Sequence record: NC_025447.1
Origin: Escherichia phage 121Q
Length of the DNA: 64,000 nt
Reading direction: 5' to 3' (one strand)
The notes under the pieces are model-generated. The model saw only the letters and a list, made by a program, of their open reading frames with translations, ran no database searches and was not told where the DNA came from. This document shows, piece after piece, positions 39,401 to 52,921 of this stretch. The number at the start of each line of letters is the position of its first letter. Position 1 is the stretch's first letter. Position numbers and translations under genes: made by a program.

Positions 39401-40229
39401 TAGAGTACAGGAATGTTCACGTTTAATCAAGAACGTAGCAGTACTGATATGCCACTAAGTAGGCAGAGGAAGTCTGCCGTACTTTGTAGTTTCCAAGCTC
39501 CTTTTCCATTTTGCAAATTACATCAAATGTAATCAAAAGTAATCACGCAATGATTAGTACTGAATTATTACTTTCACCTTAATTTCAATTACCCCTTTAC
39601 CCTTCGGGGTAAAATTCAATTACCCCTTGAGGCTCCAGCAAAAAGTTGGTTAGTACTCCATCCTAAATCTCGATCCTAAAAATTTTGGAGTACCTATGAA
39701 ATAAAAGTTGGATCTTCGAAAGTTGAAATTTACGTTGGGACATATAGGATTTGTGGGATATAATGAGTTTTGTAGCGATACAGATTATACGATTTCAGTA
39801 CTGAATAATGAAAGAAAGCTATTGACATTATGATTCAGTACTGTATAATGTTCTACATAGAGAGATGAGTTGCTGCGAACAATTCATTTACTCTACCTCC
39901 TGTCGTGAGACAGTACAGAAAAGATAGTTCCTCCTGTGGTGGTACATCTTTTTGAACCTCATATGAAAATCGTAATAACAGTACTGATATTAACAGAATG
40001 GTGTCAGTACTGATTTTAATCTAAAGCATTATGCCACCAGCTTGTGCTGGTGGATTCCCTCTAACAGTATTCAGTACTACATGATAGTCTTCATCCTCCT
40101 ACAGTAACAGTGAGGGCTATTGTGGCAGTACTGAATACTCCCTTTCAAAAGATAGATCTATGGTATAGTACTGACGGATTTTGGGCGTAGTAACCCTAGG
40201 TTGAATTTAGACGTAGAGATGTCTAGACC

Positions 40230-40362
40230 TCCAGATGGCTGGAAGTAAAGATGGCTATCCCTCTAGGCGGCTGGATGGCTAGATTTCTAGATGGCTGTAC
40301 TGCTAGACGTTTGGACGGCTAAACGGCTAGATGGTTACACGTCTGGATGTATAGACGGCTAA
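40230..40362. repeat. iteron-like array of about 9 short direct repeats (CTAGATGGCT / GGACGGCT units)
   Basis: (A/G)GA(T/C)GGCT recurs about 9 times in 130 bp, immediately followed by an AT-rich tract (40363-40392). Confidence 0.6.
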
Positions 40363-40545
40363 ATCAAAATTTTTATTTTATTTTTTCCAATAGTTCCCCT
40401 ACCGCGTGGGGATGGTTTCCCCGCAGTATCTGGAGTTAGATTTTTCTGAATCTGGAATCATTATCCCCGTTTTCGCCTGGTATGTCAACCGTCTGGATGA
40501 ATAATTTTAAAAAATAATCTAGTACTGAATTTTGGGCGTAACTAT

Positions 40546-40558
40546 GCACCCGGTGGGC
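40546..40558 (-). repeat. dispersed CTAGCCCACNGGGTGC element copy (reverse orientation)
   Basis: GCACCCGGTGGGC followed by TAG. Confidence 0.5.
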
Positions 40559-41076
40559 TAGAGTCTTTCTCGACTTGATAAAAATATTATAGCAGTACTG
40601 AATTATAAAAGCAATAGCCTGGATGTAAAAAGTTTTAATTAATTTGCTTGTCATCCTGGGGCGTACTATGGTACTATGATTCAGTACTGAGAAAGTGCTA
40701 TGACCTGCTAAGGTGCGGGAGTGTATCCTTTTTAAATTTACTGAATTTTGGGCGTAATTCCGCACCCCCTGGGGTATCCGCTTTCTCGCGTCTATGTAGT
40801 AATTATACGCTTTTTTAGTACTGAGTCAATAGCTAAAAACAAAATAATTGAAAATAATTTAACGCGTTTAAACGGCCCGTAAAGCCCTGGTTAGCTGGTG
40901 GCGGTGCAAATGTATAGCTTAGGTGTATTAATGCGTTAGAATGCGATTGAGGACGTTTTACGGGGTATAGTACTGATTCAGTACTGAATAGTAGTACTGA
41001 AAGATTGTTCTCCCTGGATTGTTCCAGTACTCCTATATAGAAAGAAAACTATTTTAAAAGTATTTGTAGAAAGTAC

Positions 41077-41104
41077 TTGCAAAGTATTGGGAAAGGTGTA
41101 GAAT
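41077..41104 (+). promoter_or_regulatory. sigma70-like early promoter TTGCAA-N16-TAGAAT plus stem-loop
   Basis: AAGTACTTGCAAA -35 block, TAGAAT -10, GTTTTACATC, then ACGGGGGAAACGCTCCCGT hairpin. Confidence 0.55.
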
Positions 41105-41160
41105 GTTTTACATCGAGACGGGGGAAACGCTCCCGTTGCACTTTAAAAGAGATTAAAACG

Positions 41161-41523
41161 ATGGCGACTCAAATCAATACTATCATGCTTAACCTGGTTT
41201 CTTTCCGTGAAGAGATGAAAGATCTTCCCGCTGAGACTGTACGGATTCACATTGCAGCTTATCGGGAATTGATTGCAATGCTGCCGCTTAAGCGTGAACA
41301 GTATGCCGCTACTGCTATGCTCGATGCAATGATCCATAAGATGATCCAGACTGATTTAACGATGGCTTATCAGTACATGGGCGAAATGTTTGCAGTGTAT
41401 AGCAAGCCAGTACCAGGAATGGAAAGTACAGAAGTATTGCACGGCTTAAACTTAAAACAAGATGCATGGGATAATATGCCTCGTTTCCTGGTATGGGCTG
41501 ACAGTGGCAAGATTTACGAATAA
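41161..41523 (+). CDS. hypothetical protein
   Basis: start MATQINTIM after promoter/stem-loop (track ORF starts 41077 inside the promoter). Confidence 0.55.
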   Translation: MATQINTIMLNLVSFREEMKDLPAETVRIHIAAYRELIAMLPLKREQYAATAMLDAMIHKMIQTDLTMAYQYMGEMFAVYSKPVPGMESTEVLHGLNLKQDAWDNMPRFLVWADSGKIYE

Positions 41524-41537
41524 GTTTAATAAAGTAC

Positions 41538-41565
41538 TTGCAAACTAAGTTTAAAAGCGTATAAT
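41538..41565 (+). promoter_or_regulatory. sigma70-like early promoter TTGCAA-N16-TATAAT plus stem-loop
   Basis: TTGCAA 41538, TATAAT 41560, GGGGAATAGTTCCCC hairpin, SD AAGAGGA. Confidence 0.6.
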
Positions 41566-41617
41566 GTTTTATATCAGGTGGGGAATAGTTCCCCACTATA
41601 ATAAAGAGGATTTAAAA

Positions 41618-41857
41618 ATGGCTAAATCAAAAATGTTCTTAGGACACAAAAACAAAACTCATTGGAATGTTTCCTTATGGATTAATAATGACGAATCATT
41701 ATACCGGTTGGCCCAGGACTTTATTGCCGCTAACACTAATCGTAATGATGCGGCCCGTCATATGATGCTATTTTTAGAACAGACTGGACAAGATAAAACT
41801 CCAGACGGCTTTAAGTATAGCACTACTGCGATCCGTGCGGCGATGGTTGGAATGTAA
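41618..41857 (+). CDS. hypothetical protein
   Basis: ATG 41618 after SD AGAGGA. Confidence 0.6.
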   Translation: MAKSKMFLGHKNKTHWNVSLWINNDESLYRLAQDFIAANTNRNDAARHMMLFLEQTGQDKTPDGFKYSTTAIRAAMVGM

Positions 41858-41940
41858 GAGAATAGATTAAAAGTACTATTGCACGGTGATAGTACTTTAT
41901 AATAAAGTTCTTTTTGTACAACAACGATAGGGGTAACAGC

Positions 41941-42207
41941 ATGACTATTACATATTTTGCAACGCGTGAACTTGCTCGGATTGCCGCACGCCAGGACGGG
42001 GCGACGTTTAAAGATATGGGCGTACAATCTGAACGTGGTAAACGTTGGGCCGTAGTAAAGCAAAGTACAGCCCGATCAATTCAGTACTGGCGAGCGGCTT
42101 TAAAGCGTCCTGATAGTGTATCGCGTCGCGTGGTAGAAATAAAGCACGACCGCAAGGGCAATCGCGTTACCGTGTACCGTACTAAAAAGATTGCAGTACT
42201 TGAATAA
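41941..42207 (+). CDS. hypothetical protein, paralog of 53998 gene
   Basis: FATRELARIAARQDGATFKDMG..RWAV and HDRKGNRVTVY blocks shared with 53998-54393 protein. Confidence 0.6.
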   Translation: MTITYFATRELARIAARQDGATFKDMGVQSERGKRWAVVKQSTARSIQYWRAALKRPDSVSRRVVEIKHDRKGNRVTVYRTKKIAVLE

Positions 42208-42214
42208 AAAGTAC

Positions 42215-42242
42215 TTGCAAACTATGTTTAATGGCGTATAAT
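42215..42242 (+). promoter_or_regulatory. sigma70-like early promoter TTGCAA-N16-TATAAT plus stem-loop
   Basis: TTGCAA 42215, TATAAT 42237, GCGGGAACACTTCCCGC hairpin, SD GGAG. Confidence 0.6.
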
Positions 42243-42294
42243 GTTTTACATCGAGAGCGGGAACACTTCCCGCCTATAACCTGGAGTAATAAAA

Positions 42295-42525
42295 ATGACT
42301 AATATGTATATGACTGAAGTTAAAACCGTAAAAGATACTACCACGAATAAAACTACTTACTTACAGCGGATCTGCGGTGTATGGCAACGTATCAGCAAAT
42401 CAAAGTACTTTAAATTAACATCATATGCCAATCGTTCGGATTCATTCAGTACTGAAATAAAAGGTAATAAAGTACACCAATACGGCACTTATTATTATTA
42501 TAGCCTGGACGCGATTGCAGTATAA
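42295..42525 (+). CDS. hypothetical protein
   Basis: 76-aa ORF after promoter/stem-loop/SD. Confidence 0.55.
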   Translation: MTNMYMTEVKTVKDTTTNKTTYLQRICGVWQRISKSKYFKLTSYANRSDSFSTEIKGNKVHQYGTYYYYSLDAIAV

Positions 42526-42608
42526 GTAGTTTACAAATCTTTACAATTGCCAGTATTGACTTATTTTGTCAGTACTGGCATAATGTATCTATTGAAACGA
42601 ACAATTTG

Positions 42609-42621
42609 GCCCACGGGGTGC
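42609..42621 (+). repeat. dispersed CTAGCCCACNGGGTGC element copy
   Basis: GCCCACGGGGTGC followed by GGGAGTGTATCTAT. Confidence 0.5.
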
Positions 42622-42666
42622 GGGAGTGTATCTATAGAAAAAGTAGTTTATTACAGTTACAATTGT

Positions 42667-42678
42667 GCACCCGGTGGG
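42667..42678 (-). repeat. dispersed element copy (reverse orientation)
   Basis: GCACCCGGTGGGTTAG; paired with the 42609 copy as an inverted repeat. Confidence 0.5.
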
Positions 42679-42775
42679 TTAGCTGTTGTCATGGGGTATA
42701 TTATGCCAGTACTTGATAATGCTGTCAATACTTTTTTTTTACTATTCAGTACTGAAAACTATTTTTAAAAAGTAC

Positions 42776-42803
42776 TTGCAAACTATGTTTAAAGGCGTAT
42801 AAT
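42776..42803 (+). promoter_or_regulatory. sigma70-like promoter TTGCAA-N16-TATAAT driving a non-coding element
   Basis: TTGCAA 42776, TATAAT 42798; no ORF before the next promoter. Confidence 0.5.
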
Positions 42804-42809
42804 GTTTTA

Positions 42810-42890
42810 CATCAGGACGGGGAATGAAATAAGTAACTCCCTGTTAAGTAGTCCAGGAGTAAGACATACGAAAACCTCCCCTGATAAAAT
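42810..42890 (+). ncRNA. candidate small RNA or leader element (copy 1)
   Basis: about 80 nt behind a promoter, GGACGGGGA...TCCCCTG closing stem, no ATG-initiated ORF; near-identical copy at 52784-52858. Confidence 0.3.
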
Positions 42891-42893
42891 AGT

Positions 42894-42921
42894 TTGACAA
42901 AGATTTATAAAAGCGTATAAT
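42894..42921 (+). promoter_or_regulatory. sigma70-like promoter TTGACA-N16-TATAAT
   Basis: TTGACA 42894, TATAAT 42916, SD GAGGG before ATG 42954. Confidence 0.6.
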
Positions 42922-42953
42922 ACTTACATCAACTACTGAATGAGGGTTACAAA

Positions 42954-43565
42954 ATGAAAACTATCACTACTACTACTTTCGTTATGGCTTTTTCTGAACT
43001 GAACGCAGAACAACAAACGGCGGCTATCGAACTGGTTCGGGATCGGGAACGTGCAAGTGAGGATAATTTCTTTGCTGAGTCAGTACTGGAATACTATAAA
43101 GAAACAGTACTACCAGAATACGGCATAGATGAAGCTGAATTGCAATACAGTGGTTTTTGGTCGCAAGGTGACGGTGCATCAATCAGTACTGACCACGTTG
43201 ACGCTGAGAAGTTTTTACGCAAGGTTAAGGCGTTAACGAAATATCGTTCCATCCGTCACCTGTTGAACGAAGATGATTTGGAAATGAGTGTAGAACGTTC
43301 CCAATCGCGTTATGCACACGAAAACACGGTAGGCGGTTGCGTTGATACTCGCTACACTGATTTAACTGTAAAACAGGCGGCGTTAGCTGAGGAACTGGAA
43401 AATTTACTGACTGACACGATCCGAGAATTATCTTGTAAGCTGTACCGTGATTTAGAAAATGCTTATGAAGACCAGTTTACTACTGAAAACATTGTAGGAC
43501 TGATTGAGGGTAACGAATATCAATTTAATGTTATCGATGGTGTAGTAGAATCTATCGCATATTAA
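42954..43565 (+). CDS. hypothetical acidic protein (203 aa)
   Basis: long ORF behind consensus promoter. Confidence 0.65.
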   Translation: MKTITTTTFVMAFSELNAEQQTAAIELVRDRERASEDNFFAESVLEYYKETVLPEYGIDEAELQYSGFWSQGDGASISTDHVDAEKFLRKVKALTKYRSIRHLLNEDDLEMSVERSQSRYAHENTVGGCVDTRYTDLTVKQAALAEELENLLTDTIRELSCKLYRDLENAYEDQFTTENIVGLIEGNEYQFNVIDGVVESIAY

Positions 43566-43623
43566 TTCAGTACTGAATCACTGGCGGGGAATGGTTCCCG
43601 CCTATATCCCAGGAGTAAGAGAA

Positions 43624-43860
43624 ATGATCGAACAAATCAAAACTACAACGCCAAACGTAACGGGTACAGTATCACACTTCATTGGTGACGATTCGCGGGG
43701 CGTTCCTTATTGTGCAGTACATGTAAACAAAAATGGCGACTACTGGCTAACGGTTTACGGTTCTTATTCTTTCGGGCGTAGTGCACACCAAAAGATCCTG
43801 GATAAAGTACAACCAACGGGTAAAAATATCACCGCTGAGATGTTTTATAAAAAGCACTAA
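43624..43860 (+). CDS. hypothetical protein
   Basis: ATG 43624 after GGCGGGGAATGGTTCCCGCC stem-loop and SD AGGAG. Confidence 0.6.
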   Translation: MIEQIKTTTPNVTGTVSHFIGDDSRGVPYCAVHVNKNGDYWLTVYGSYSFGRSAHQKILDKVQPTGKNITAEMFYKKH

Positions 43861-43867
43861 AAAGTAC

Positions 43868-43895
43868 TTGCAAAGTAATTAGATTAACGTATAAT
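43868..43895 (+). promoter_or_regulatory. sigma70-like early promoter TTGCAA-N16-TATAAT plus stem-loop
   Basis: TTGCAA 43868, TATAAT 43890, GCGGGAATAGTTCCCGC hairpin. Confidence 0.6.
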
Positions 43896-43945
43896 ACTTT
43901 ATATCGAGAGCGGGAATAGTTCCCGCCTTTACTGAGGATTATCTA

Positions 43946-44230
43946 ATGGGTAAAGTAATTAACTATACAGTACTAAGCAAGTCATTATCTATTAGCCAGT
44001 GCACCGATGGTTTTTGGCTGTACGATGAAACGCGTGGCATGAATTTAGCTATGCAGGAGAAAACTACTGATGCGGCATATCTTAAAGCACTGGAATACTA
44101 CCAGAAGCGTTTAAAGGAAGTAGAAAACGATTATAATAACCTGAAAGCGAAAGTAGATCATTTCGTCGGTCAATTCATTGACGATGACGAGGACGGGCAC
44201 TACTGCGACCGTTGCGGATCTTACAATTGA
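43946..44230 (+). CDS. hypothetical protein with C-terminal CxxC
   Basis: SD TGAGGA; ends HYCDRCGSYN. Confidence 0.6.
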   Translation: MGKVINYTVLSKSLSISQCTDGFWLYDETRGMNLAMQEKTTDAAYLKALEYYQKRLKEVENDYNNLKAKVDHFVGQFIDDDEDGHYCDRCGSYN

Positions 44231-44247
44231 GTACTGAGGATTATCTA

Positions 44248-44451
44248 ATGAGTGATTTAATTAAACGTATCAAAGAGCTTGAAGAAAAAGAATTGCAGTT
44301 GATCGGGTTACGGAATAAAGTATTCCATGATTTAGGTGGCTTCATTAATGCCTGGGATAGTGGCGATCCTGATGCGTTACCTGCTAACCGCCAGGCGATG
44401 ATCAATGATGTGCGTGGTGTCTTTGATTATGTTTTAAAGCAATTAAATTAA
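44248..44451 (+). CDS. hypothetical protein
   Basis: ATG 44248 with the same CTGAGGATTATCTAATG initiation region as the 43946 gene. Confidence 0.6.
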   Translation: MSDLIKRIKELEEKELQLIGLRNKVFHDLGGFINAWDSGDPDALPANRQAMINDVRGVFDYVLKQLN

Positions 44452-44459
44452 AAAAGTAC

Positions 44460-44487
44460 TTGCAATTAGTTTTCAGTACTGTATAAT
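44460..44487 (+). promoter_or_regulatory. sigma70-like early promoter TTGCAA-N16-TATAAT plus stem-loop
   Basis: TTGCAA 44460, TATAAT 44482, GGGGGAAATGGTTCTCCCC hairpin, SD AAGGAG. Confidence 0.6.
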
Positions 44488-44537
44488 AGTTTACATCAAG
44501 GGGGAAATGGTTCTCCCCACTAATAAGGAGTTTTACA

Positions 44538-44759
44538 ATGGCTAATATCACTACTCTTTCCCAGCTTGAAGCACTGGTTAAATCTATGCGGGAACATGCC
44601 GACAATATCGGCGTAGAAGATCCGGCTGTATGTTTTTGCGACGAAATAAATGATGATACGCTCGTCATTGCAGAAGTACAAGACGTTTCTAACTATTCAT
44701 CGCGTTACACTGGCGGCGTAGCAAAGAAAGGTGATTTTTGTTTATATCTTACTAAGTAA
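44538..44759 (+). CDS. hypothetical protein
   Basis: 73-aa ORF after promoter/stem-loop/SD. Confidence 0.6.
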   Translation: MANITTLSQLEALVKSMREHADNIGVEDPAVCFCDEINDDTLVIAEVQDVSNYSSRYTGGVAKKGDFCLYLTK

Positions 44760-44765
44760 TAACCA

Positions 44766-44792
44766 GGGGGATCAAACGATCCCCTTTATTTT
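44766..44792 (+). terminator. intrinsic terminator
   Basis: GGGGGATC-AAAC-GATCCCC hairpin then TTTATTTT. Confidence 0.7.
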
Positions 44793-44824
44793 GCAGTACT
44801 GAATCATTTAATAGACGGATCTAT

Positions 44825-44836
44825 GCACCCTGTGGG
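44825..44836 (-). repeat. dispersed element copy (reverse orientation)
   Basis: GCACCCTGTGGGTTAG inside an about 80-bp block also seen at 42667-42740. Confidence 0.5.
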
Positions 44837-45005
44837 TTAGTGACTATCTCGTCTTTATGTAGGTATTATGCCAGTACTGGATGCAGTTGTCAAGACTTTT
44901 TTTTCAAATACTTTTATATTAAAGTACTTGATAATAGTTTTTAAACGCGTATAATGTTTTACATCTAATCGGGAATACTCCCTAGTACTAACAAAGGATA
45001 TACAA

Positions 45006-45305
45006 ATGAAAACTGCAATCATCGCCCTGGCTTTATCTGTTTCCTCTTTCGCTGTTAACGCTTCCGTTGATGTACAGAAAGAAAAATTCATTCAGTGCAC
45101 TGTTGCAATGACTAACGAGGAAACGGCTGAGATCGTTACCAAATCCCTGGAACTGGCCCCTGCAATGTTTGCTAATGGCCCGTACCATGAAGAAGATGAT
45201 CAGGGTAGCACGACCATCTATTACGATGCAAAAAGTAAACGCGGTTCTGTCACTGTAATGGATACAGAGAAAGTTACATTCACTGGCGTAATTAATTGTT
45301 TATAA
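45006..45305 (+). CDS. secreted small protein, Cys-pair family
   Basis: signal peptide MKTAIIALALSVSSFAVNA; Cys in mature N-terminal region and Cys 2 aa from end. Confidence 0.65.
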   Translation: MKTAIIALALSVSSFAVNASVDVQKEKFIQCTVAMTNEETAEIVTKSLELAPAMFANGPYHEEDDQGSTTIYYDAKSKRGSVTVMDTEKVTFTGVINCL

Positions 45306-45322
45306 TATAGTACTGAATCACT

Positions 45323-45352
45323 AGCCCACTATAAGGAGTGGGCTTTTTTTAT
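45323..45352 (+). terminator. intrinsic terminator
   Basis: AGCCCACT-n6-AGTGGGCT hairpin then TTTTTTT. Confidence 0.75.
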
Positions 45353-45543
45353 TGTAGGATTGTAGTACTGGTATACTTTGAAAATAGTTTTAAAAAAGTA
45401 GTTGACATTACCAGGGAAAAGCGTAGAATGTATTACATCAAGACGGGGAACATTAAGTAGACCGCCAGTAAGTCGAATGAAAAACTGGACACGTCAAACA
45501 AACTTTGATAAACTAACTTAAACTTTAATTGAGGATTTATAAA

Positions 45544-46026
45544 ATGGCTAATGTAAAATCATTTCTGAAAGCACTGATTTCTAACGATACTGTCATTGCT
45601 GCTGAATTGCTGGCTGACCTGGATAATGATACCATGAAAGCAGTACGCAACAATTTTAACATTGCTTACAGTGAAGCGAAAGAACTACAAGCCAAAAAGG
45701 TAGCAGAACTGGAAGAACAGAAAAAAGCCCGTGAAGCAGAACTGCAAGCAACAATAGAAAGTATTCAGGCGGCGGTGTCTGGTTTAGATCTGGAAGTGGT
45801 TATTGAAATGGCACATAAAGCCCTGGCGGTTAAGTACGGTGAAGATAAGCCGGAATCTAAGCCTAAAAAATGGATTCAAGAACGTGTTACGGTTGTCCTT
45901 GATAACGGGGAAGAACATTTGATTCCTGTACGCGGTAACTGCATTGCGGTAGTACTGGATGCTATCAAAGAAAGCGGTATGACTCGCGAGGAATGGATCG
46001 AATCTCACCGCAAAATTGAAGCATAA
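45544..46026 (+). CDS. hypothetical protein, Lys/Glu-rich helical
   Basis: ATG 45544 with SD GAGGA; upstream TTGACA-N17-TAGAAT promoter at about 45407. Confidence 0.6.
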   Translation: MANVKSFLKALISNDTVIAAELLADLDNDTMKAVRNNFNIAYSEAKELQAKKVAELEEQKKAREAELQATIESIQAAVSGLDLEVVIEMAHKALAVKYGEDKPESKPKKWIQERVTVVLDNGEEHLIPVRGNCIAVVLDAIKESGMTREEWIESHRKIEA

Positions 46027-46047
46027 CATTTAAAGTACTGAATCACT

Positions 46048-46074
46048 AGCCCACTTATACAGTGGGCTTTTTTG
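46048..46074 (+). terminator. intrinsic terminator
   Basis: AGCCCACT-n5-AGTGGGCT hairpin then TTTTT; same element as 45323. Confidence 0.75.
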
Positions 46075-46300
46075 TGTCTATAGTATTCCATGCCGTCAGC
46101 ACCTCATAGAATCGATTCTAACGCATTAAACTGATTATCTGATGCATCGCCCTAGCTGGTGGAGTTAAGGCCGTTAGAATGCGATTGAGAGCGTTTAAAG
46201 TATTTTGCAAAAAGTAATAAAAAGTACTTGCACGATTCAGAGATTAGCGTATAATGTTTTACATCAAGGCGAAACACCTTAACTAACTGAGGATATAAAG

Positions 46301-46453
46301 ATGAATACTTATGAACTGGATTGTTTCACGTTACAAGTAATGTCAGTATGCAGCAAGAAAGATTGGTCATCAAAGGAATTTAAAGCAGTTATTGCGTGTG
46401 CAAAACACGGCAAGACTATCAATGAAACGGCATCAATCATTGATAAACTTTAA
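46301..46453 (+). CDS. hypothetical small protein (50 aa)
   Basis: not in ORF track; SD TGAGGA 8 nt before ATG; downstream of TTGCAC...TATAAT promoter. Confidence 0.45.
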   Translation: MNTYELDCFTLQVMSVCSKKDWSSKEFKAVIACAKHGKTINETASIIDKL

Positions 46454-46461
46454 AAAATAGT

Positions 46462-46489
46462 TTGACAATAGTTTTAAGTACTGTATAAT
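46462..46489 (+). promoter_or_regulatory. sigma70-like promoter TTGACA-N16-TATAAT
   Basis: TTGACA 46462, TATAAT 46484. Confidence 0.6.
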
Positions 46490-46522
46490 ATTTTACATCA
46501 ACTACTGAGAAGGATTTAAAAA

Positions 46523-46750
46523 ATGGCTATCATCATCACTTACGTATCTGGCACTACTGGCACTTCTAGCACTGTTGCAGTACTGACCAACAAGAAAGGT
46601 GCGGAACTTCATTCTGCAATGAATACCTGGGCGGTGAATGAGTTCGGTCAGTGGGCTAGTGTAGAATACATTGAAACCTATCAAGTGCCGTCTATTAGCT
46701 TAACTGATTTAGGTGTAGATCGTATCCTTTGCCTGGATGAATTAAACTAA
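46523..46750 (+). CDS. hypothetical protein
   Basis: 75-aa ORF, SD AAGGA. Confidence 0.6.
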   Translation: MAIIITYVSGTTGTSSTVAVLTNKKGAELHSAMNTWAVNEFGQWASVEYIETYQVPSISLTDLGVDRILCLDELN

Positions 46751-46835
46751 AAAGTACTTGCAAAGTAAATCGGATAAAGTATAATACATTACATCAAGGG
46801 GAGAAATGATTCTCCCCACTAAGAGGAAACTAAAA

Positions 46836-46979
46836 ATGAAAACTTGTCAATGTGGTAAAAAATCTATCACTGGTTTGAAACGGGGCGTTGCTCTTTGTCA
46901 GTATCACTATAACGCTCAAGTATGGGGTAAAGAGTGGGCAGACCAGGTGGAAGCTGTAAAGAAAGCAAAAAGTAAGTAA
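46836..46979 (+). CDS. small Cys-containing protein (47 aa), possible zinc ribbon
   Basis: not in ORF track; promoter, GGGGAGAAATGATTCTCCCC stem-loop, SD AGAGGAA; CQCG...LCQYH. Confidence 0.45.
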   Translation: MKTCQCGKKSITGLKRGVALCQYHYNAQVWGKEWADQVEAVKKAKSK

Positions 46980-47060
46980 AATTATTATCACAGTACTATT
47001 GACATAGTTTGATAGTACTGGCATAATAGATTTTATCAAGACAACTAAGAGGAAACAATA

Positions 47061-47273
47061 ATGGCTATCATTACTAAAATCAAAGTTAACAAATCACTGG
47101 TTAAACTTGAACAAGTGAAAGCAGGTTATAAAGTATCGTGGTGCGGTATGTATCGGATGTTCACCGATATAGACAATGCAATCAAGTACTACACTGACAC
47201 CGTTGCCTCATTCGTTCGTTCTGATGTAGTACTGGCAGTACATGCACATAAAGCAGCGAAAGAAAGTAAGTAA
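47061..47273 (+). CDS. hypothetical protein
   Basis: 70-aa ORF behind TATTGACA...GGCATAAT promoter, SD AGAGGAA. Confidence 0.6.
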   Translation: MAIITKIKVNKSLVKLEQVKAGYKVSWCGMYRMFTDIDNAIKYYTDTVASFVRSDVVLAVHAHKAAKESK

Positions 47274-47364
47274 AAATATTATCACAGTACTATTGATATA
47301 GTTTGATAGTACTGGCATAATAGATTTTATCAAGACAACACATATTAATTTAAGGAATACTAAA

Positions 47365-47688
47365 ATGGCTAAAACTATCATCAACACCGTTTCCCTGGCT
47401 GCAATCCGTGCAATCAATGTTGACGGTAAACGTTGGACTGATTCATATGGCAATACTTATCATTCTTGTCATGTAAGCGTCGAACTGGATAACGGTTTGA
47501 ATGATCTGGCGGTTGAATCATTTACTTATGGCTATGAAGATGCATATCAACAAACGGCGTTATCTCTCTTAAAGGAATCAGTAGACGGGCTTAATACTGA
47601 TGAAACCTCCCTTACTCGTTTGTGCAATGATCTTAATATCCCGTTGCATTGTACTGTACAGAATGTTAAACGCAAAAAAGATCTTTAA
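47365..47688 (+). CDS. hypothetical protein, paralog of 53575 gene
   Basis: RWTDSYGNTYHSCHVS and FTYGY blocks shared with 53575-53898 protein. Confidence 0.65.
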   Translation: MAKTIINTVSLAAIRAINVDGKRWTDSYGNTYHSCHVSVELDNGLNDLAVESFTYGYEDAYQQTALSLLKESVDGLNTDETSLTRLCNDLNIPLHCTVQNVKRKKDL

Positions 47689-47768
47689 TTAGCTTTACTT
47701 TATGCAGATACTTTTATATAGTGTCTGCATAGGGGAAAGAAATTAAATTAACTTAAGAGGATCGTATA

Positions 47769-48038
47769 ATGAAAAATATCAGTACTTTAATCGATGCAGG
47801 TACACATGTTCGTCGGTCAATGGTTGCAACCAGTACTACAAAACAAGTAGCAAGCGGTTATCTTGTATTTGTACACGAAGGAAAGCTATTGGAACGTTCA
47901 ATCAATTTTGATGTTAAAAACAATTGCCGTTTTATTATTTTTAAGCGTGAACAATATAAAATTGATTTGCCAGCAAAGCCCATAAGCGGGGCGTACAACG
48001 TGCAATCATTGTTTGAGCGTCAACCATACACCTATTAA
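47769..48038 (+). CDS. hypothetical protein
   Basis: SD AAGAGGA; preceded by ATGCAGATAC/GTGTCTGCAT hairpin. Confidence 0.6.
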   Translation: MKNISTLIDAGTHVRRSMVATSTTKQVASGYLVFVHEGKLLERSINFDVKNNCRFIIFKREQYKIDLPAKPISGAYNVQSLFERQPYTY

Positions 48039-48089
48039 TCAAAACATCGTTAGCGGTCGATTTAGGCCGCTTATATTGGGGATTATACC

Positions 48090-48260
48090 ATGAACGTTAA
48101 TCAAGTACTGAATGAAGTTGAAAGCATCATTAAACCAATGAAACGTATTGATGCTGTTCCTACACCGGAAGAATGCCGCCTTTATGAGCGTTACAGTGTG
48201 GAACAAGCCCAGGAAATGGCCCGTATCCGTCCGGTTGCCAGTACTGATAAGGCGGCGTAA
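48090..48260 (+). CDS. hypothetical small protein (56 aa)
   Basis: not in ORF track; ATG with SD GGGGA. Confidence 0.45.
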   Translation: MNVNQVLNEVESIIKPMKRIDAVPTPEECRLYERYSVEQAQEMARIRPVASTDKAA

Positions 48261-48261
48261 T

Positions 48262-48471
48262 ATGCTTACTGTACAGGATAAGATCGACATCTTAAAGGTT
48301 AATATGTATGTGATTGATGCAGATCCTGAAAAAGTATTTGCATACGATGATTCTAATCGTAGTCCTTTTTATTGTAGTCATGTAGTTGGATACGTGCCGT
48401 TAGGGTATGTTATCGAAAGAGTGGTTGATGAAGCATACAAACATTTTTTAGAAAATAATACTTGCAATTAG
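48262..48471 (+). CDS. hypothetical protein
   Basis: ATG 48262 immediately after upstream stop (track start 48148 lies inside the previous gene). Confidence 0.5.
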   Translation: MLTVQDKIDILKVNMYVIDADPEKVFAYDDSNRSPFYCSHVVGYVPLGYVIERVVDEAYKHFLENNTCN

Positions 48472-48538
48472 TTTTCAGTACTGTATAATTGTTTACATAG
48501 AGGGGGGAATGGTTCTCCCCGATACTAGGAGAATCAAA

Positions 48539-48691
48539 ATGAAACAATACAACGCTCGGTTTGATGTTACTATCGGCAACGGCAAAGGTCAATTTTCTTT
48601 CAGTACTCGTAGGAGTTATACAGAAAACTTCCTGCGTAATTGTGCACTGACCGCCGCACAAATTAAACATTACTTTCAGGCTAAAAAATGA
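48539..48691 (+). CDS. hypothetical small protein (50 aa)
   Basis: promoter, GGGGGGAATGGTTCTCCCC stem-loop, SD AGGAG, ATG 48539. Confidence 0.55.
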   Translation: MKQYNARFDVTIGNGKGQFSFSTRRSYTENFLRNCALTAAQIKHYFQAKK

Positions 48692-48777
48692 AATCATTGG
48701 CTTATTACAGTTCGGCCCTGGTCGGTGCATTGATCGCGGCATTGTTAGTAACTTATCTATTCTTTATGGTGATTTAA

Positions 48778-48915
48778 ATGAATCCTAACGGTTTAATTTA
48801 CAGTACTCCTAAAACGAAAGCAGATAAAGCGAAAGCACGTAAAGCGAAAGTAAAGCAGTACATCAAGCAAGGCATGACACGCAAAGCGGCATTGCTTAAA
48901 GCTAAAAATAAATGA
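48778..48915 (+). CDS. small basic protein (45 aa), Lys/Ala-rich
   Basis: follows a 29-aa hydrophobic mini-ORF (48688-48777); terminator immediately downstream. Confidence 0.35.
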   Translation: MNPNGLIYSTPKTKADKAKARKAKVKQYIKQGMTRKAALLKAKNK

Positions 48916-48922
48916 AAAAAGT

Positions 48923-48946
48923 GGTTGACTTCGGTCAGCCATTTTG
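48923..48946 (+). terminator. intrinsic terminator, UUCG-loop hairpin
   Basis: GGTTGACTTCGGTCAGCC then ATTTT. Confidence 0.7.
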
Positions 48947-48978
48947 CTATTATATATTCATTGAGAGATAGCTCACTA

Positions 48979-48991
48979 GCCCACAGGGTGC
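48979..48991 (+). repeat. dispersed CTAGCCCACAGGGTGC element copy
   Basis: ACTAGCCCACAGGGTGCAGGAGTGTATCTAT. Confidence 0.55.
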
Positions 48992-49138
48992 AGGAGTGTA
49001 TCTATTGTATAATGATTGAGTACTGAAAACTATTTTAAAGTATTTGATAAAAAGTACTTGCAAACTATCTCAATGAGCGTATAATGTTTTATATCGCAAG
49101 GGGAAACGGTTTCCTCTCCAAATAAAAGGAATACCAAA

Positions 49139-49477
49139 ATGATCTCTATCGCTCAATCTAACTTTGAAAACGAAATCATCGCTCAGGCACTGCGTTTAAA
49201 TGATGGTCGGGCCGAAATCAATTACGGTTTCAATAGTGGTGGATGTGAAAAATATCAGTACTTTGTAACGGCTGATGGCTGTGTCCTGGGTATCAATACA
49301 GTTATTGTAAACATTCAGAAAATTAATTTCAATGATCCAGACGATAGCCAGTTTTACATCACGGGCGTAGACGTGAACTATGAGGATGACTCACTAACTG
49401 ATGATCACACTGGCGAGAAGTTAGAAAGTGCATACGGTGAAGATGATTATCAGTCAGTACCAGAAGATTTTGAATAA
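49139..49477 (+). CDS. hypothetical acidic protein
   Basis: promoter, GGGGAAACGGTTTCCTC stem-loop, SD AAGGA. Confidence 0.6.
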   Translation: MISIAQSNFENEIIAQALRLNDGRAEINYGFNSGGCEKYQYFVTADGCVLGINTVIVNIQKINFNDPDDSQFYITGVDVNYEDDSLTDDHTGEKLESAYGEDDYQSVPEDFE

Positions 49478-49491
49478 TATTAAAAAATAGT

Positions 49492-49519
49492 TTGACAATA
49501 GTTTTTAGTACTGTATAAT
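49492..49519 (+). promoter_or_regulatory. sigma70-like early promoter TTGACA-N16-TATAAT plus stem-loop
   Basis: TTGACA 49492, TATAAT 49514, GGGGAGAATAGTTCTCCCC hairpin. Confidence 0.65.
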
Positions 49520-49572
49520 TAATTACATCAAGGGGAGAATAGTTCTCCCCACTAACAGAGAGAGAAAACAAA

Positions 49573-49785
49573 ATGGCTAATATCCGCACTGTACTGAAAA
49601 ATGCAAAACAAGTTTTATTTTCTGATCATGAAAATTTCAACAAGGATATCACTGGCGTTCGGAATATCAAAGATGTAAAAAATGTTATGGGTATCTATTG
49701 CAATATGAAACGTGTTGGCACGTTCGGCGATAAAGTACTATACCAGGCAGGGGATTACAATTTTACACTGACTATCATTAACTAA
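49573..49785 (+). CDS. hypothetical protein
   Basis: 70-aa ORF after promoter/stem-loop/SD. Confidence 0.6.
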   Translation: MANIRTVLKNAKQVLFSDHENFNKDITGVRNIKDVKNVMGIYCNMKRVGTFGDKVLYQAGDYNFTLTIIN

Positions 49786-49876
49786 AAATATTATCACAGT
49801 ACTATTGACAACGTTTGATAGTACTGGCATAATAACTTTTATCAAGACAACGCATATTAATTTAAGGAATACTAAA

Positions 49877-50056
49877 ATGGCTATTATCGCAAAAACTGAA
49901 ATCATCGGCCTGGATTCTATCATCATGACGTTTGAAGATCAAAAAGGGATGTATGTAGTTTCCTATGGTGATTATGTTCGGGAGTATGAAACAGTAGACG
50001 AAGCCTTTGAAAGTTACATTCGCCAGGTTAATAAAGCATACGACGATTACCGCTAA
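49877..50056 (+). CDS. hypothetical small protein (59 aa)
   Basis: ATG 49877 with the same AAGGAATACTAAAATGGCT initiation region as the 47365 gene; track start 49805 lies in the promoter. Confidence 0.55.
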   Translation: MAIIAKTEIIGLDSIIMTFEDQKGMYVVSYGDYVREYETVDEAFESYIRQVNKAYDDYR

Positions 50057-50155
50057 AATATATTACCAGTACTATTAAATCTATTGACAATGTTTGATAG
50101 TACTGTATAATAAGTTTTATAAACAGTAGTTAACTTAACCTAAGAGAGAAAAATC

Positions 50156-50299
50156 ATGACAGCATTAGATTCATTCATCGACGCAGTACTGGCAAAAACT
50201 GGCGAGGATCTGACCGCAGAACAATACGCGATGATCGAACAATGTCAGCAAGACGGTAAATCGGTGAAAGATACTGTTAAGATTATCCGCAAGATGTAA
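50156..50299 (+). CDS. hypothetical small protein (47 aa)
   Basis: not in ORF track; SD AAGAGAG; terminator-like hairpin follows. Confidence 0.45.
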   Translation: MTALDSFIDAVLAKTGEDLTAEQYAMIEQCQQDGKSVKDTVKIIRKM

Positions 50300-50305
50300 G
50301 ATTAT

Positions 50306-50334
50306 AGCCCACTGGTTAACGCTGGTGGGCTTTA
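50306..50334 (+). terminator. terminator-like hairpin
   Basis: GCCCACTGG-n5-CTGGTGGGC imperfect hairpin followed by TTTAATCATTT. Confidence 0.45.
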
Positions 50335-50404
50335 ATCATTTACCCTATACAATGCCAGTACTAAACCGTTTAACTCGTTAGAATGCGTTACAGGACGTTT
50401 AACA

Positions 50405-50602
50405 ATGATTAGCATGAAATCAGTACAAAAACAAATAGAAACATTATCAAAAATTAAACGTAAACAGTACTCATTAGAATATACAATCAATGGTAACTAT
50501 CATCTAATGAAAGAAAATAATTTTATAGTCATTGATGAATCATTGCAGATCATTAGTATAGTACTGAAAGCATTAATCAATGACAGAAAAAAGTTAAAAT
50601 AA
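50405..50602 (+). CDS. hypothetical protein
   Basis: 65-aa ORF, weak SD. Confidence 0.4.
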   Translation: MISMKSVQKQIETLSKIKRKQYSLEYTINGNYHLMKENNFIVIDESLQIISIVLKALINDRKKLK

Positions 50603-50662
50603 TCTATTGACAATATTATCCAGTACTGGCATAATACTTACATCAAGACGAGAACGTCACTA

Positions 50663-50675
50663 ACCCATAGGGTGC
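50663..50675 (+). repeat. dispersed element copy (variant)
   Basis: ACCCATAGGGTGCACAAATGTAACTAT. Confidence 0.45.
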
Positions 50676-50689
50676 ACAAATGTAACTAT

Positions 50690-50780
50690 ATAATATCGAT
50701 CAATAAATGATCAAAAAAGTACTGGATCAATTTAGCATAAGGCGTATAATTCTGATCAAATCTTGATCAAAGGCAATAAA
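50690..50780. repeat. cluster of five TGATCAA (GATC) sites
   Basis: CGATCAA, TGATCAA, GGATCAA, TGATCAA, TGATCAA within about 90 bp of non-coding DNA. Confidence 0.5.
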
Positions 50781-50931
50781 CGTAGTTGAAATTATATAGA
50801 AAGTACAAAGGCGTTACCATTCGTGGTAATGCTGGGGAATATGTAGTATCATACGGTTTGAATAAAATCAGTACTAGTAGTATTATTGTAGCATTACAGT
50901 ACTATAGTATTTTTATAATGAGGTTAAAATA

Positions 50932-51189
50932 ATGGCTGTTGGATTCGCGAAGGACGGGGCCGAGCAAGACGAGATTAACGCAGTGATTCAGGCCGCTGTA
51001 AACCACGCTAGAACGCAAATTAACGCACAAATAGAATCACTGATACATTGCCTCGACTGCGGCGATAAAATCCCTGAGAATCGCCGCCTGGCCGTTAAGG
51101 GGTGTAAGTACTGCATCACTTGCCAGGCTGATCATGATAGCATATTCAAACGCAATCCCCGTAATTGTTGGCATAGATCTATGAGATAA
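50932..51189 (+). CDS. TraR/DksA-family C4 zinc-finger protein
   Basis: CLDCGDKIPENRRLAVKGCKYCITCQ matches the TraR/DksA C4 zinc-finger pattern (compare F-plasmid TraR CEACGNPIPEARRK...CVECQ); SD GAGG. Confidence 0.75.
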   Translation: MAVGFAKDGAEQDEINAVIQAAVNHARTQINAQIESLIHCLDCGDKIPENRRLAVKGCKYCITCQADHDSIFKRNPRNCWHRSMR

Positions 51190-51195
51190 AAAGTA

Positions 51196-51223
51196 TTGAC
51201 AGTACTGTTAGTTAGTGTATAAT
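51196..51223 (+). promoter_or_regulatory. sigma70-like promoter TTGACA-N16-TATAAT
   Basis: TTGACA 51196, TATAAT 51218, SD TGAGGA. Confidence 0.6.
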
Positions 51224-51252
51224 ATTTTATATCTTAACTGAGGATTGAAATC

Positions 51253-51609
51253 ATGGGTATACAACATATCACGCGTACTACAGACAATGGTGAGATCACT
51301 GGCTATCAAGTACAAGGCAAAGTAGCACAATTGCAGTACTGGTTTGTTAAACGTGGCATTGTTGCACCGGATCTTGATTATGATCGTGTAGCGTTTATTG
51401 ATTCTCTTTATGTTGATCCCGATAATCGCGGTAACGGTGAAGGTACTGAGTTAATGAATGCCTTTATTGATGCCGCCGATGATTCAGATTGTATCATCTT
51501 AGAATGCGATACTGGAGAAGATAACGAGTTTAATCTTAAAGAATGGTATGAAGGTTTTGGATTTGAAGTACTGATTAACTGCGAATATCCTATAATGATT
51601 TTATCCTAG
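51253..51609 (+). CDS. GNAT-family N-acetyltransferase-like protein
   Basis: VDPDNRGNGEGTELMNAFIDAA resembles GNAT motif A; WYEGFGFE motif. Confidence 0.55.
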   Translation: MGIQHITRTTDNGEITGYQVQGKVAQLQYWFVKRGIVAPDLDYDRVAFIDSLYVDPDNRGNGEGTELMNAFIDAADDSDCIILECDTGEDNEFNLKEWYEGFGFEVLINCEYPIMILS

Positions 51610-51688
51610 TACTTGCAATTAGTTTTAAGTACTGTATAATAGTTTACATGAAGGGGAGAATAGTTCTCCCCACTACAAGGAAAGACAA

Positions 51689-51877
51689 ATGCAAAACTTA
51701 TCAAGTATTTTAGTACAAGATGATTTCGGTAATCCTGGAAGTGCTATCATCGTTCGGGGCAATAAGGCAACGTTTGTTATTGCTGGTGGACCTGTACAGC
51801 GTAGCATTAAAAACAATGCAGTTACAATCAATAATGTTCGCTATCGCTTAGATAAAGAATTGATTCATAAACTTTAA
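51689..51877 (+). CDS. hypothetical protein
   Basis: promoter, GGGGAGAATAGTTCTCCCC stem-loop, SD AAGGAAA. Confidence 0.6.
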   Translation: MQNLSSILVQDDFGNPGSAIIVRGNKATFVIAGGPVQRSIKNNAVTINNVRYRLDKELIHKL

Positions 51878-51962
51878 AAAAGTATTTGACAAAGCATTGT
51901 AGTACTGTATAATAGTTTACATGAAGGGGAGAAATGATTCTCCCCACTAAGAGGAAAGAAAC

Positions 51963-52175
51963 ATGCAAGGTCAACTAATCGTTCGTAAATGGTCTGATAC
52001 TAACGAAAAACCGTGGGATGTTCAATATATCGGACCGGACGGTGTTTCACGTTATCAACCTGGCGTAACGCATAGTACTGAGCAATATGCCGCCGCTCAC
52101 CGCGAACGCCTGTTAGAATCTATGAAACAGGGATTCTGTGAAAAATTCATTCAAGATCATTGGCTGAAAGATTAA
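51963..52175 (+). CDS. hypothetical protein
   Basis: promoter, GGGGAGAAATGATTCTCCCC stem-loop, SD AGAGGAA. Confidence 0.6.
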   Translation: MQGQLIVRKWSDTNEKPWDVQYIGPDGVSRYQPGVTHSTEQYAAAHRERLLESMKQGFCEKFIQDHWLKD

Positions 52176-52194
52176 TATATAAGGAGTACAGCTT

Positions 52195-52287
52195 ATGCAA
52201 ATGAATCCGATGATTGTTGTGTTAGCTGTACTTATGATCATTCATGCCATCGTAGAAGTACTAACACAATCAGGAGTAATACAATGA
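52195..52287 (+). CDS. small hydrophobic peptide (30 aa)
   Basis: not in ORF track; SD AAGGAG 8 nt before ATG. Confidence 0.35.
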   Translation: MQMNPMIVVLAVLMIIHAIVEVLTQSGVIQ

Positions 52288-52454
52288 TCCAAGTAGAATT
52301 ATCAGTACTGAAAGATCTGTTTTATCGGTTAGGCACTACTGGCGAATACCCTAAAGGGGATACTGCTAAACTATACATTGCATTGGATGTATGGCAACGT
52401 AATGAACTGGCTAACGCCTGGCGTAAAGGTAAATCAGAGGGGATTGCAGCATGA
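52284..52454 (+). CDS. hypothetical small protein (56 aa)
   Basis: not in ORF track; ATGA overlap with upstream stop. Confidence 0.4.
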   Translation: MIQVELSVLKDLFYRLGTTGEYPKGDTAKLYIALDVWQRNELANAWRKGKSEGIAA

Positions 52455-52600
52455 AAGAATTTTTATTCGAAGTAGTGTTCCAGGGCGTAGGAAGTAACCA
52501 ACTGATTCGATCAAGTGGTTACAATGTTAACCAGGCATGGAATAACATTAAACAAATGTACCCGAACGCTATCACATATCGCAACCCAAAACAAGTTTAA
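52451..52600 (+). CDS. hypothetical small protein (49 aa)
   Basis: not in ORF track; ATGA overlap; followed by terminator. Confidence 0.4.
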   Translation: MKEFLFEVVFQGVGSNQLIRSSGYNVNQAWNNIKQMYPNAITYRNPKQV

Positions 52601-52614
52601 AAAGAATAAAAAAA

Positions 52615-52640
52615 GGGATTGACTCCGGTCAGTCCCTTTG
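52615..52640 (+). terminator. intrinsic terminator, UCCG-loop variant
   Basis: GGGATTGAC-TCCG-GTCAGTCCC then TTTG; followed by GCTATTATATA. Confidence 0.7.
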
Positions 52641-52666
52641 CTATTATATACGCATAGACAAAAACT

Positions 52667-52679
52667 AGCCCACAGGGTG
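52667..52679 (+). repeat. dispersed CTAGCCCACAGGGTGC element copy
   Basis: ACTAGCCCACAGGGTGCATAAATGTATCTAT. Confidence 0.55.
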
Positions 52680-52858: not shown

Positions 52859-52863
52859 ATAGT

Positions 52864-52891: not shown

Positions 52892-52921
52892 ACTTACATC
52901 AACCACAAAGAGGAATACAAA

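Follow-up and report, generated by a model that had tools for sequence, protein, structure and literature searches.

What do the non-coding elements of about 80 nucleotides (nt) that lie between paired promoters in Escherichia phage 121Q (NC_025447.1), an Asteriusvirus or PBECO4/121Q-like 350-kb coliphage, do for the phage? A reading made without database searches (the sequence-only reading) had picked out two of them in a 64,000-nt stretch of this genome, the window analysed here, and proposed that they are small RNAs (sRNAs) or structured leaders. We find that the element is real, functional-looking and far more widespread than suspected. Three copies lie in the window, all on the + strand (42811-42885, 52783-52855 and a divergent one at 45437-45495), and each very probably forms the 5' end of an early transcript synthesized by the host sigma70 polymerase, folded as an H-type pseudoknot within a closing helix. 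We take the element to be a structured RNA of phage early leaders that would act on host machinery, with a substantial chance that it represents a genuinely new RNA class. As to mechanism, we favor a nascent RNA that would act in cis and co-transcriptionally on host RNA polymerase, much as the put RNA of phage HK022 does, a reading to which we assign a probability of roughly 0.35.

The 34-nt core GTTAAGTAGTCCAGGAGTAAGACATACGAAAACC occurs exactly twice in the 64 kb, at 42843-42876 and 52813-52846 (+), where none is expected (100 shuffles). When aligned, copies 1 and 2 differ by three T/C substitutions and a 2-nt insertion or deletion (indel), all of them in the first hairpin, H1. The sequence-only reading was therefore right that two near-identical elements stand at these places, each behind one promoter (P1) and directly ahead of a second (P2), and that they hold no plausible reading frame; the third, divergent copy had escaped it. 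Promoters and start sites throughout are consensus predictions. The features of the three copies are:

42776-42803, + strand: promoter P1 of copy 1, TTGCAA-16-TATAAT, 10/12 in the consensus scan
42811-42885, + strand: element copy 1 (sequence checked, minimum-energy fold, pair counts)
42811-42816/42880-42885, + strand: closing stem of copy 1, AUCAGG/CCUGAU
42817-42823/42838-42844, + strand: hairpin H1 of copy 1, ACGGGGA/UCCCUGU
42845-42851, + strand: UAAGUAG of copy 1
42851-42853 with 42863-42865, + strand: helix S1 of copy 1, GUC with GAC
42856-42859 with 42876-42879, + strand: helix S2 of copy 1, GGAG with CUCC
42866-42875, + strand: A-rich loop of copy 1, AUACGAAAAC
42894-42921, + strand: promoter P2 of copy 1, a perfect TTGACA-16-TATAAT (consensus scan), ahead of gene 42954-43565
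42954-43565: gene behind P2 of copy 1, PHROG 5162, function unknown
45402-45429, + strand: promoter of copy 3, TTGACA-16-TAGAAT, directly after a terminator at 45323-45344
45437-45495, + strand: element copy 3, divergent, core 45452-45492, without H1 (pattern scan and covariance model R1)
45442-45445 with 45492-45495, + strand: closing stem of copy 3, GACG with CGUC
45454-45460: UAAGUAG of copy 3, followed by S1 GAC/GUC, S2 CCAG/CUGG and the loop GAAUGAAAAA
45544-46026: gene whose 5' untranslated region (UTR) contains copy 3, the unit lying between two terminators, with only a weak P2-like site at 45486-45514
52748-52775, + strand: promoter P1 of copy 2, TTGCAT-16-TATAAT, read off the sequence, its -35 hexamer being under the scan threshold
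52783-52855, + strand: element copy 2, with the architecture of copy 1 and H1 shorter by 2 nt
52864-52891, + strand: promoter P2 of copy 2, a perfect TTGACA-16-TATAAT, ahead of gene 52922-53122
52922-53122: gene behind P2 of copy 2, PHROG 7744, function unknown

Aligning ..TTTTAC/ATCAGG with the annotated start of the T7 A1 transcript, ..CAGCC/ATCGAG, places the probable transcription start of copy 1 at A42811, the first base of its closing stem, and that of copy 2 at A52783. The sole + strand open reading frame (ORF) over copy 1 (42802-42897, 31 amino acids) begins with an ATG inside the -10 box, upstream of this predicted start, and is disrupted in copy 2 by the indel; the other two frames contain stops. 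A micro-ORF or leader peptide was rejected on the wider family as well, in which nearly every member has ACG or ACA where the start codon would be, and GGAG is replaced elsewhere. The three copies precede three unrelated proteins of unknown function, for which Pfam and PHROG searches gave nothing informative.

The evidence for the fold comes from covariation. Members of the family share a common core, UAAGUAG-[G N C]-(N)-[S2 5']-(A)UAAG-[G N' C]-NN-A-Y-G-A-A-N-A-[S2 3'], in which the single strands UAAGUAG, UAAG and A-Y-G-A-A-N-A are invariant; some 20 unpaired nt are constant across unrelated phage families. Within this frame the helix S1 (G-N-C/G-N'-C) interleaves with S2, which has 4-6 base pairs (bp). 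Among 38 distinct cores, 95.4% of S1 and S2 cells are paired, a level reached by 0 of 500 column shuffles (counts that are not probabilities, because the sequences are related), and sliding the partners by 1-3 columns leaves 16-37% paired; the outer S1 pairs were preset by the search pattern, S1 is just 3 bp long, and the fold is a computed prediction. The free middle pair of S1 is A-U in 25 cores, C-G in 6 and U-A in 6, with one mismatch, and three S2 pairs show changes on both sides (U-A 22/A-U 14; C-G 30/G-C 7; C-G 30/G-C 7/U-A 1), giving the variants AGCCUG/CAGGC, AGCCAG/CUGGU, AGCUUG/CAAGC, AACCUG/CAGGU, CGCCAG/CUGG, CAGGAG/CUCC and UAGGUG/CACC. As a control for chance, 10 pattern matches in unrelated bacterial metagenome-assembled genomes (MAGs) were compared; S1 pairs in 4 of these 10, and both helices are complementary in none.

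A second set, of 29 T7-type sequences, adds a closing helix, S3, formed between the loop of a hairpin H1 that lies upstream and the tail immediately 3' of S2. In this set S1, S2 and S3 are together 99.5% paired, with 8 pairs changed on both sides. All five S3 pairs are doubly changed (GUCAA/UUGAC, GUCGGU/ACCGAC, GUCAUC/GAUGAC, GAUUAG/CUAAUC, GUCAC/GUGAC), the H1 stems covary as well (CCGG/CCGG, CCAG/CUGG, CGGG/CCCG, CCAC/GUGG, CCUG/CAGG), and RNAalifold recovers S2 and S3 unaided. Over both sets the interleaved helices are 95-99% paired, and the slid controls 13-37%. Because S1 and S2 interleave and covary inside a covarying closing helix, the RNA forms an H-type pseudoknot within that helix, with the strand order A-B-A'-C-D-C'-D'-B' and with compensatory changes in each of the two interleaved helices, as the class requires. 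Recurrent G-C to G-U changes in the helices identify the folded molecule as RNA of the + strand.

Other members close the knot with nested stems: GACG/CGUC in copy 3, ACCGAA/UUCGGU in the LIMEzero type and GCGGC/GUCGC in jumbo phages. In the Asteriusvirus type the tail pairs with the six bases that open the transcript (AUCAGG/CCUGAU), and H1, an extra hairpin carried by the two near-identical copies of the window and lacking in copy 3, comes after that strand. Because this closing stem never varies, it rests on minimum-energy folds (z -1.3 to -3.6) and on analogy with the other types. The sequence-only reading had proposed such a stem, built from a G-run and a distal UCCCCUG; a closing stem does exist, and the G-run pairs with a nearby C-run in H1 instead. 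That reading had also named structure prediction and covariation between copies and homologs as a check, and this comparison brought out both the covarying helices and a pseudoknot that had gone unseen. The covariance model R1 gives 53.3 bits to copies 1 and 2 and 50.9 bits to copy 3, scores that are not independent because all three copies were in its training set. A would-be fourth copy at 16894-16937(-) scores 14.6 bits and lies inside a Walker-A gene, and was set aside as chance.

The same substitutions weigh on two further ideas. One holds that the element works as DNA, as an UP-like or protein-binding site that serves P2 and whose inverted repeats are bound as such; the element is almost always found directly upstream of a promoter, and the T7-type GAAAAA falls about where we take the proximal UP subsite to be. 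Yet the tolerated G-C to G-U changes are C-A mismatches on the other strand, and DNA binding gives no reason for complementary segments to interleave. P2, moreover, lies anywhere from 2 to 48 nt away, and copy 3 and some LIMEzero-type members have a weak P2 or none. All of this makes a DNA-level role very improbable. The other idea treats the element as debris, a decayed promoter-leader-mini-gene cassette duplicated by recombination (AGGAG then ACG AAA ACC TCC CCT GAT AAA ATA GTT TGA), in a region that is indeed rich in recombining promoter cassettes, with AGGAG resembling a Shine-Dalgarno (SD) sequence and one EJP2 copy carrying ATG at the ACG position. Covariation effectively refutes it: conservation and compensatory changes span Autographiviridae, RaK2-like jumbo phages and others, the core is better conserved than the flanking promoter spacers, the start codon is missing in nearly all members and the "SD" is swapped for non-SD helices elsewhere. 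We give this idea next to no weight.

How far the family extends emerged from searches in several directions. With the 77-nt element as query, blastn matched 43 phage records, every match being intergenic or overlapped only by dubious "hypothetical protein" calls. Asteriusvirus records hold two to four element places each, one of them inside annotated direct terminal repeats, and the element also occurs in four Vequintavirinae (91-95% identity to Asteriusvirus copies) and three Justusliebigvirus (85-87%). The copy 3 variant was found again in phage G17 and in a metagenome Asteriusvirus contig. Phage EJP2 has three copies, one with an altered helix, and this variant weakly matched T7-like phages at loci that have the same single-stranded core and a wholly different helix, between tandem early promoters. 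The reciprocal search placed the core in 440 Autographiviridae records, among them T7, T3, Yersinia and Klebsiella phages, Kayfunavirus, Elunavirus, Waewaevirus LIMEzero and Drulisvirus P284, and matched PBECO4 back. The T7 element spans nt 536-593, downstream of the A1 start at 498 and upstream of the A2 start at 626, and the five paired bases at its 3' end, UUGAC, are transcribed from the A2 -35 hexamer. The element is also present in RaK2-like jumbo phages that infect Salmonella, Klebsiella, Erwinia, Serratia and Cronobacter, where it lies within or close to annotated terminal repeats.

A scan of IMG/VR with a pattern that left both helices free returned 58 loci, all of them phage leaders bar one repeated core sequence at three loci (including L072 and L074), which lies in coding DNA, lacks the helices and was discarded as chance. 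The first IMG/VR scan, with an Asteriusvirus-specific pattern, gave no true homolog, and one locus (L009) was likewise discarded as coding sequence without helices. No blastn match was found in 5,426 E. coli genomes at E<=1, and a pattern scan of the genomes of 185,579 species yielded 11 matches, of which 10 are the chance-like ones in unrelated MAGs and one is a T3-like phage contig. The element is not of host origin, and the family is restricted to phages of Enterobacterales. Two individual copies deserve a remark. In EJP2 (L017, 5765-5846) an ATG replaces the usual ACG and opens a possible 12-codon ORF (MKNTPDKRIKKY) behind GGUG, an isolated and probably incidental case. In phage CMSTMSU (L008, "UNVERIFIED_ORG") small deletions disrupt both S2 and the closing stem; the record bears an unverified flag and is perhaps simply error-prone.

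Nothing catalogued in Rfam 15 or described in the openly searchable literature corresponds to the family. No Rfam 15 model reached its gathering threshold anywhere in the 64 kb, and permissive searches (E<=10) with the element and its T7, Pkp-1 and LIMEzero homologs returned noise only (<=19.7 bits, E>=0.5). In the openly searchable literature, with older subscription-only papers outside the search, the T7 stretch appears only inside template listings and the motif is not described. ARAGORN found 0 transfer RNA or transfer-messenger RNA genes in the window. Several specific identities were also rejected: an rrn leader, in that R1 matches only ACGAAAAA in rrnB and the E. coli rrnB leader is without the motif; a CsrA-type GGA sponge or functional SD, in that GGUG/CACC, GCCUG/CAGGC, GCCAG/CUGGU and others stand in for GGAG elsewhere, so that the pairing is conserved and not the motif; a -10-like pause element inside the motif, inspection of the cores revealing none with the conserved A2 and T6; and a hammerhead or hepatitis delta virus (HDV)-like ribozyme, whose core nucleotides and strand order do not fit and for which there was no Rfam match.

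The RNA nonetheless has the look of a ligand-sensing aptamer (riboswitch) or small self-cleaving ribozyme, placed in an early leader and new to the catalogs: a length of 45-80 nt, nested pseudoknots and many invariant unpaired nt are typical of both. We regard this as improbable, in that no expression platform is seen (neither a terminator nor a sequestered ribosome site of a real gene), the SD-like GGAG of Asteriusvirus is elsewhere GCCUG, GCCAG or GGUG, no Rfam 15 riboswitch or ribozyme matches even at E<=10, and the strand order differs from what we take to be the HDV-like topology.

The position of the element is as regular as its fold. A predicted sigma70-type promoter always lies just upstream, ending 24-62 nt before the core, and of 71 distinct contexts 64 have a second promoter that starts 2-48 nt past the core, most often at 7 or 19 nt; in the T7 type the closing helix even employs the RNA copy of the A2 -35 hexamer. 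In T7 itself the element stands behind A1 only, the first of three tandem promoters, and in T7-type members about 40 nt of transcript, with another 5' hairpin, come before it. The genes that follow differ, from T7 gene 0.3 to the unrelated proteins of the window and others elsewhere. A scan found no terminator-like site in 42500-43700, nor between element and next gene for the other two copies, and the element is therefore co-transcribed with the sequence downstream as a structured 5' leader. A classical trans-acting sRNA gene was rejected on this ground, the element having its own promoter and no Rho-independent terminator of its own. Of the two identities first proposed, the structured leader thus stands, as a covarying family, and the self-contained sRNA gene is not supported, with copy 3 running into a 5' UTR; a stable fragment could still be processed from the leader. 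Evidence that the region is "just a 5-prime UTR" of the downstream gene had been named as grounds for dismissal. It is a 5' leader, and a conserved and intricately folded one, for which that alternative was too blunt.

Such processing is central to a different proposal, in which the leader would be cut, for example in the A/U-rich GAUAAAAUAG after the closing stem, to release a stable RNA of about 75 nt that, in the opening minutes of infection, neutralizes or redirects a conserved Enterobacterales protein, be it a defense nuclease, an RNA chaperone, an RNase or a ribosomal protein. About 20 invariant single-stranded nt across unrelated families would suit one conserved host partner; the element has a strong promoter of its own, occupies two to four places per Asteriusvirus record and sits in early or terminal-repeat DNA; its sporadic presence in Vequintavirinae and Justusliebigvirus (7 records, 85-95% identity) resembles accessory-gene exchange; and P1 is not needed for the downstream gene, because that gene has its own P2. 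Against such a decoy, there is no intrinsic terminator, mapped processing site or known partner, and copy 3 and the LIMEzero type run directly into a 5' UTR or boxA. Moved cassettes, moreover, carry the downstream gene too: phage muut shares a P1-element-P2-gene unit with G17 copy b, and A73 shares one with EJP2 copy b, so that whole cassettes appear to have moved between phage families. Overall we think a trans-acting decoy rather unlikely.

The surroundings of the window copies raise yet another option. Positions 40-56 kb form an early-type region with at least 17 consensus promoters, each leading into a short 5' hairpin, a ribosome site and then a small gene whose function is unknown, and with terminators interspersed (scanned sub-regions and the annotation of the homologous G17 region). 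The generic hairpin, GGGGAnnnnnTTCTCCCC, starts about 8 nt after the -10 box at these at least 17 neighboring promoters, and the element takes that slot. Terminal pairing and a compact knot could block RNase E attack and scanning, prolonging the life of early mRNAs. The closing stems of copies 1 and 2 begin at the predicted +1, and copy 3 stands in place of the generic hairpin in a promoter-leader-gene-terminator unit that is ordinary in all else, as this option would have it. Such a barrier, however, requires no invariant loops, pseudoknot or cross-family conservation; the T7-type element is preceded by about 40 nt of transcript and another 5' hairpin; and P2 transcripts would be left unprotected. 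A purely stabilizing role accordingly seems doubtful. Stabilizer hairpins of the ompA type share with the element a 5'-terminal pairing from about +1 and the generic-hairpin slot, and differ from it in that the element is far more complex and sequence-constrained and, in the T7 type, not 5'-terminal.

The element lies directly downstream of what are predicted to be early host-polymerase promoters and starts, in more than one copy per genome. Its nearest functional precedent is the put RNA. In HK022, put is an RNA of about 73 nt that starts at an early promoter, is present in two copies per genome and acts in cis on the zinc-binding domain of the polymerase beta' subunit; a sigma70-dependent pause at a -10-like sequence has been proposed to aid its folding (PMC9378689). 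The element resembles putL and putR in size, in its place immediately behind early promoters and in its multiple copies, and it shares with them an absence of coding capacity and of a terminator of its own, an intricate tertiary fold and a promoter-like -10 nearby. The folds themselves differ. Put consists of two long stem-loops in a V shape, with a triplex in stem I and a G35-A9 platform (PMC9378689), whereas the element has a pseudoknot in a closing helix in place of the V-shaped pair with its short triplex, and because the topology differs it is not a structural member of the put group. We saw no resemblance in sequence, though put sequences were not aligned against the element. The phages that carry the two RNAs also contrast, put belonging to lambdoid temperate phages and the element to lytic T7-like and jumbo phages, and cis antitermination is proven for put and only guessed for the element.

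On the reading we favor, the element RNA would fold on leaving the polymerase and either stay bound to the elongation complex or load a host factor onto it. The modified complex would be less prone to pausing, to Rho and to terminators, as with HK022 put. The near-consensus P2 might double as a sigma70-dependent pause site, allowing time for folding and docking, and the outcome would be two transcript classes, modified from P1 and ordinary from P2. Action in cis fits the link to P2, the A1-only position in T7 and the presence of boxA further down T7-type leaders.

Several observations pull the other way. The fold is unrelated to that of put, and the Asteriusvirus-type closing stem is invariant. 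Nearly every small gene of the window has its own promoter, and because no terminator stands between element and gene there is no obvious requirement for read-through. P2 transcripts do not contain the element, although P2 is by consensus the stronger of the two promoters. For decades T7 A1 has served as an in vitro template, and we know of no report of a leader effect.

Taking the mechanisms more broadly, we see a little less than an even chance that this is an unrecognized class of phage RNA, with nested pseudoknots, that reprograms a host machine within seconds of infection and is present even in the T7 A1 leader. It would then be either a nascent RNA that modifies E. coli RNA polymerase without the help of factors, solving the task of put in a second, unrelated way, or an RNA that captures a conserved host protein. 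The core is common to T7, T3, podoviruses of Yersinia, Klebsiella, Salmonella, Erwinia and Pantoea, and 350-kb jumbo myoviruses, and its presence in unrelated families that share only Enterobacterales hosts points to one host target exploited right after DNA entry. T7 is among the best-studied genetic systems and A1 is a standard template of transcription biochemistry. A covarying pseudoknotted RNA between A1 and A2 would mean that a textbook genome holds a functional element that has been overlooked. Were it to act in cis on RNA polymerase, it would offer a new portable part for elongation control; were it to act in trans, it would be a candidate RNA-based factor for host takeover or anti-defense.

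The element also invites comparison with leaders that carry the antitermination signals boxA and boxB of the nut and rrn type, with which it shares an early or leader location downstream of promoters that are strong and often tandem. In several Autographiviridae boxA lies downstream of the element, 18-30 nt or a few hundred nt away, and T7-like members have a perfect or near-perfect boxA further down the same leader, separate from the element. The element itself is without boxA, and no boxA consensus ((T)GCTCTTTAACAA) was found in or near the three window copies. The loop of lambda boxB is GAAAA. S2 closes with ..GAAAAA beside its 3' strand, a faint likeness to that loop, but the S2 loop is 16-17 nt long and not a pentaloop. 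The H-type pseudoknot in the gene 32 mRNA leader of T2, T4 and T6 has a 1-nt first loop. It shares with the element the type of fold, that short loop and the place in a phage 5' leader; it is gene-specific and nucleates binding of the phage's own protein, whereas the element precedes unrelated genes in unrelated phages, and the two show no homology.

Some further observations concern these leaders. In LIMEzero-like and related podovirus contigs (L023, L049, L054, L055) only about 18-40 nt separate the motif from a boxA-like GCTCTTTAACAA or GCTCTTTAAAAA downstream, a gap that sometimes also holds a promoter; this is the tightest spacing of the motif to a known antitermination signal in our analysis. 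The sole exact boxA of the window, the 13-nt TGCTCTTTAACAA at 2315-2327(-), lies on the other strand, 40 kb away; because the sequence there looks coding and has no promoter context, it is probably there by chance. In Klebsiella phage Pkp-1 (L018, Kayfunavirus; 340-395) the A1 leader upstream of the motif resembles the E. coli rrnB P1 transcript (L087), GACACGGnAACAAC...GCCGGGTC. The similarity is modest (local alignment, z=4.5) and is weak or absent in T7, T3 and L1. T7-like leaders also contain an RNase III site. The rrnB-like stretch together with boxA suggests mimicry of a ribosomal RNA operon leader.

The early-type region of the window has other repeated parts. Promoters in 40000-56000 are of two sequence types, AAAAAGTACTTGCAA...GTATAAT and TTGACAATAGTTTTTAGTACTGTATAAT, and promoter-hairpin units stand, for example, at 41527-41609, 42204-42286, 43857-43939, 46747-46829 and 51875-51957. 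Some initial transcribed sequences (ACATCGAGAGCGGGAAC) resemble the T7 A1 +1 region, ATCGAGAGGGAC, and A73, of the Vequintavirinae, has near-identical promoter-leader cassettes; early cassettes therefore seem to be exchanged between coliphage families. A terminator-like hairpin, AAAGGGATTGACTCCGGTCAGTCCCTTT, is present in three copies (48904-48964, 52598-52658 and 55896-55956) and contains a -35 TTGACT 17 nt from TATTAT, so that terminator and promoter overlap. Finally, a box, CTAGCCCACAGGGTGCAnnAnTGTATCTAT, is repeated in both orientations at 40700-40735, 42605-42640, 48975-49010, 50659-50694 and 52664-52699, with inverted relatives near 40523-40591, 40739-40807, 44802-44870 and 42668-42690. 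It often lies just downstream of TATTGAC...TGGCATAAT promoters, two such promoter-box units face each other at 42554-42730, and the box looks like an operator or part of a convergent-transcription unit.

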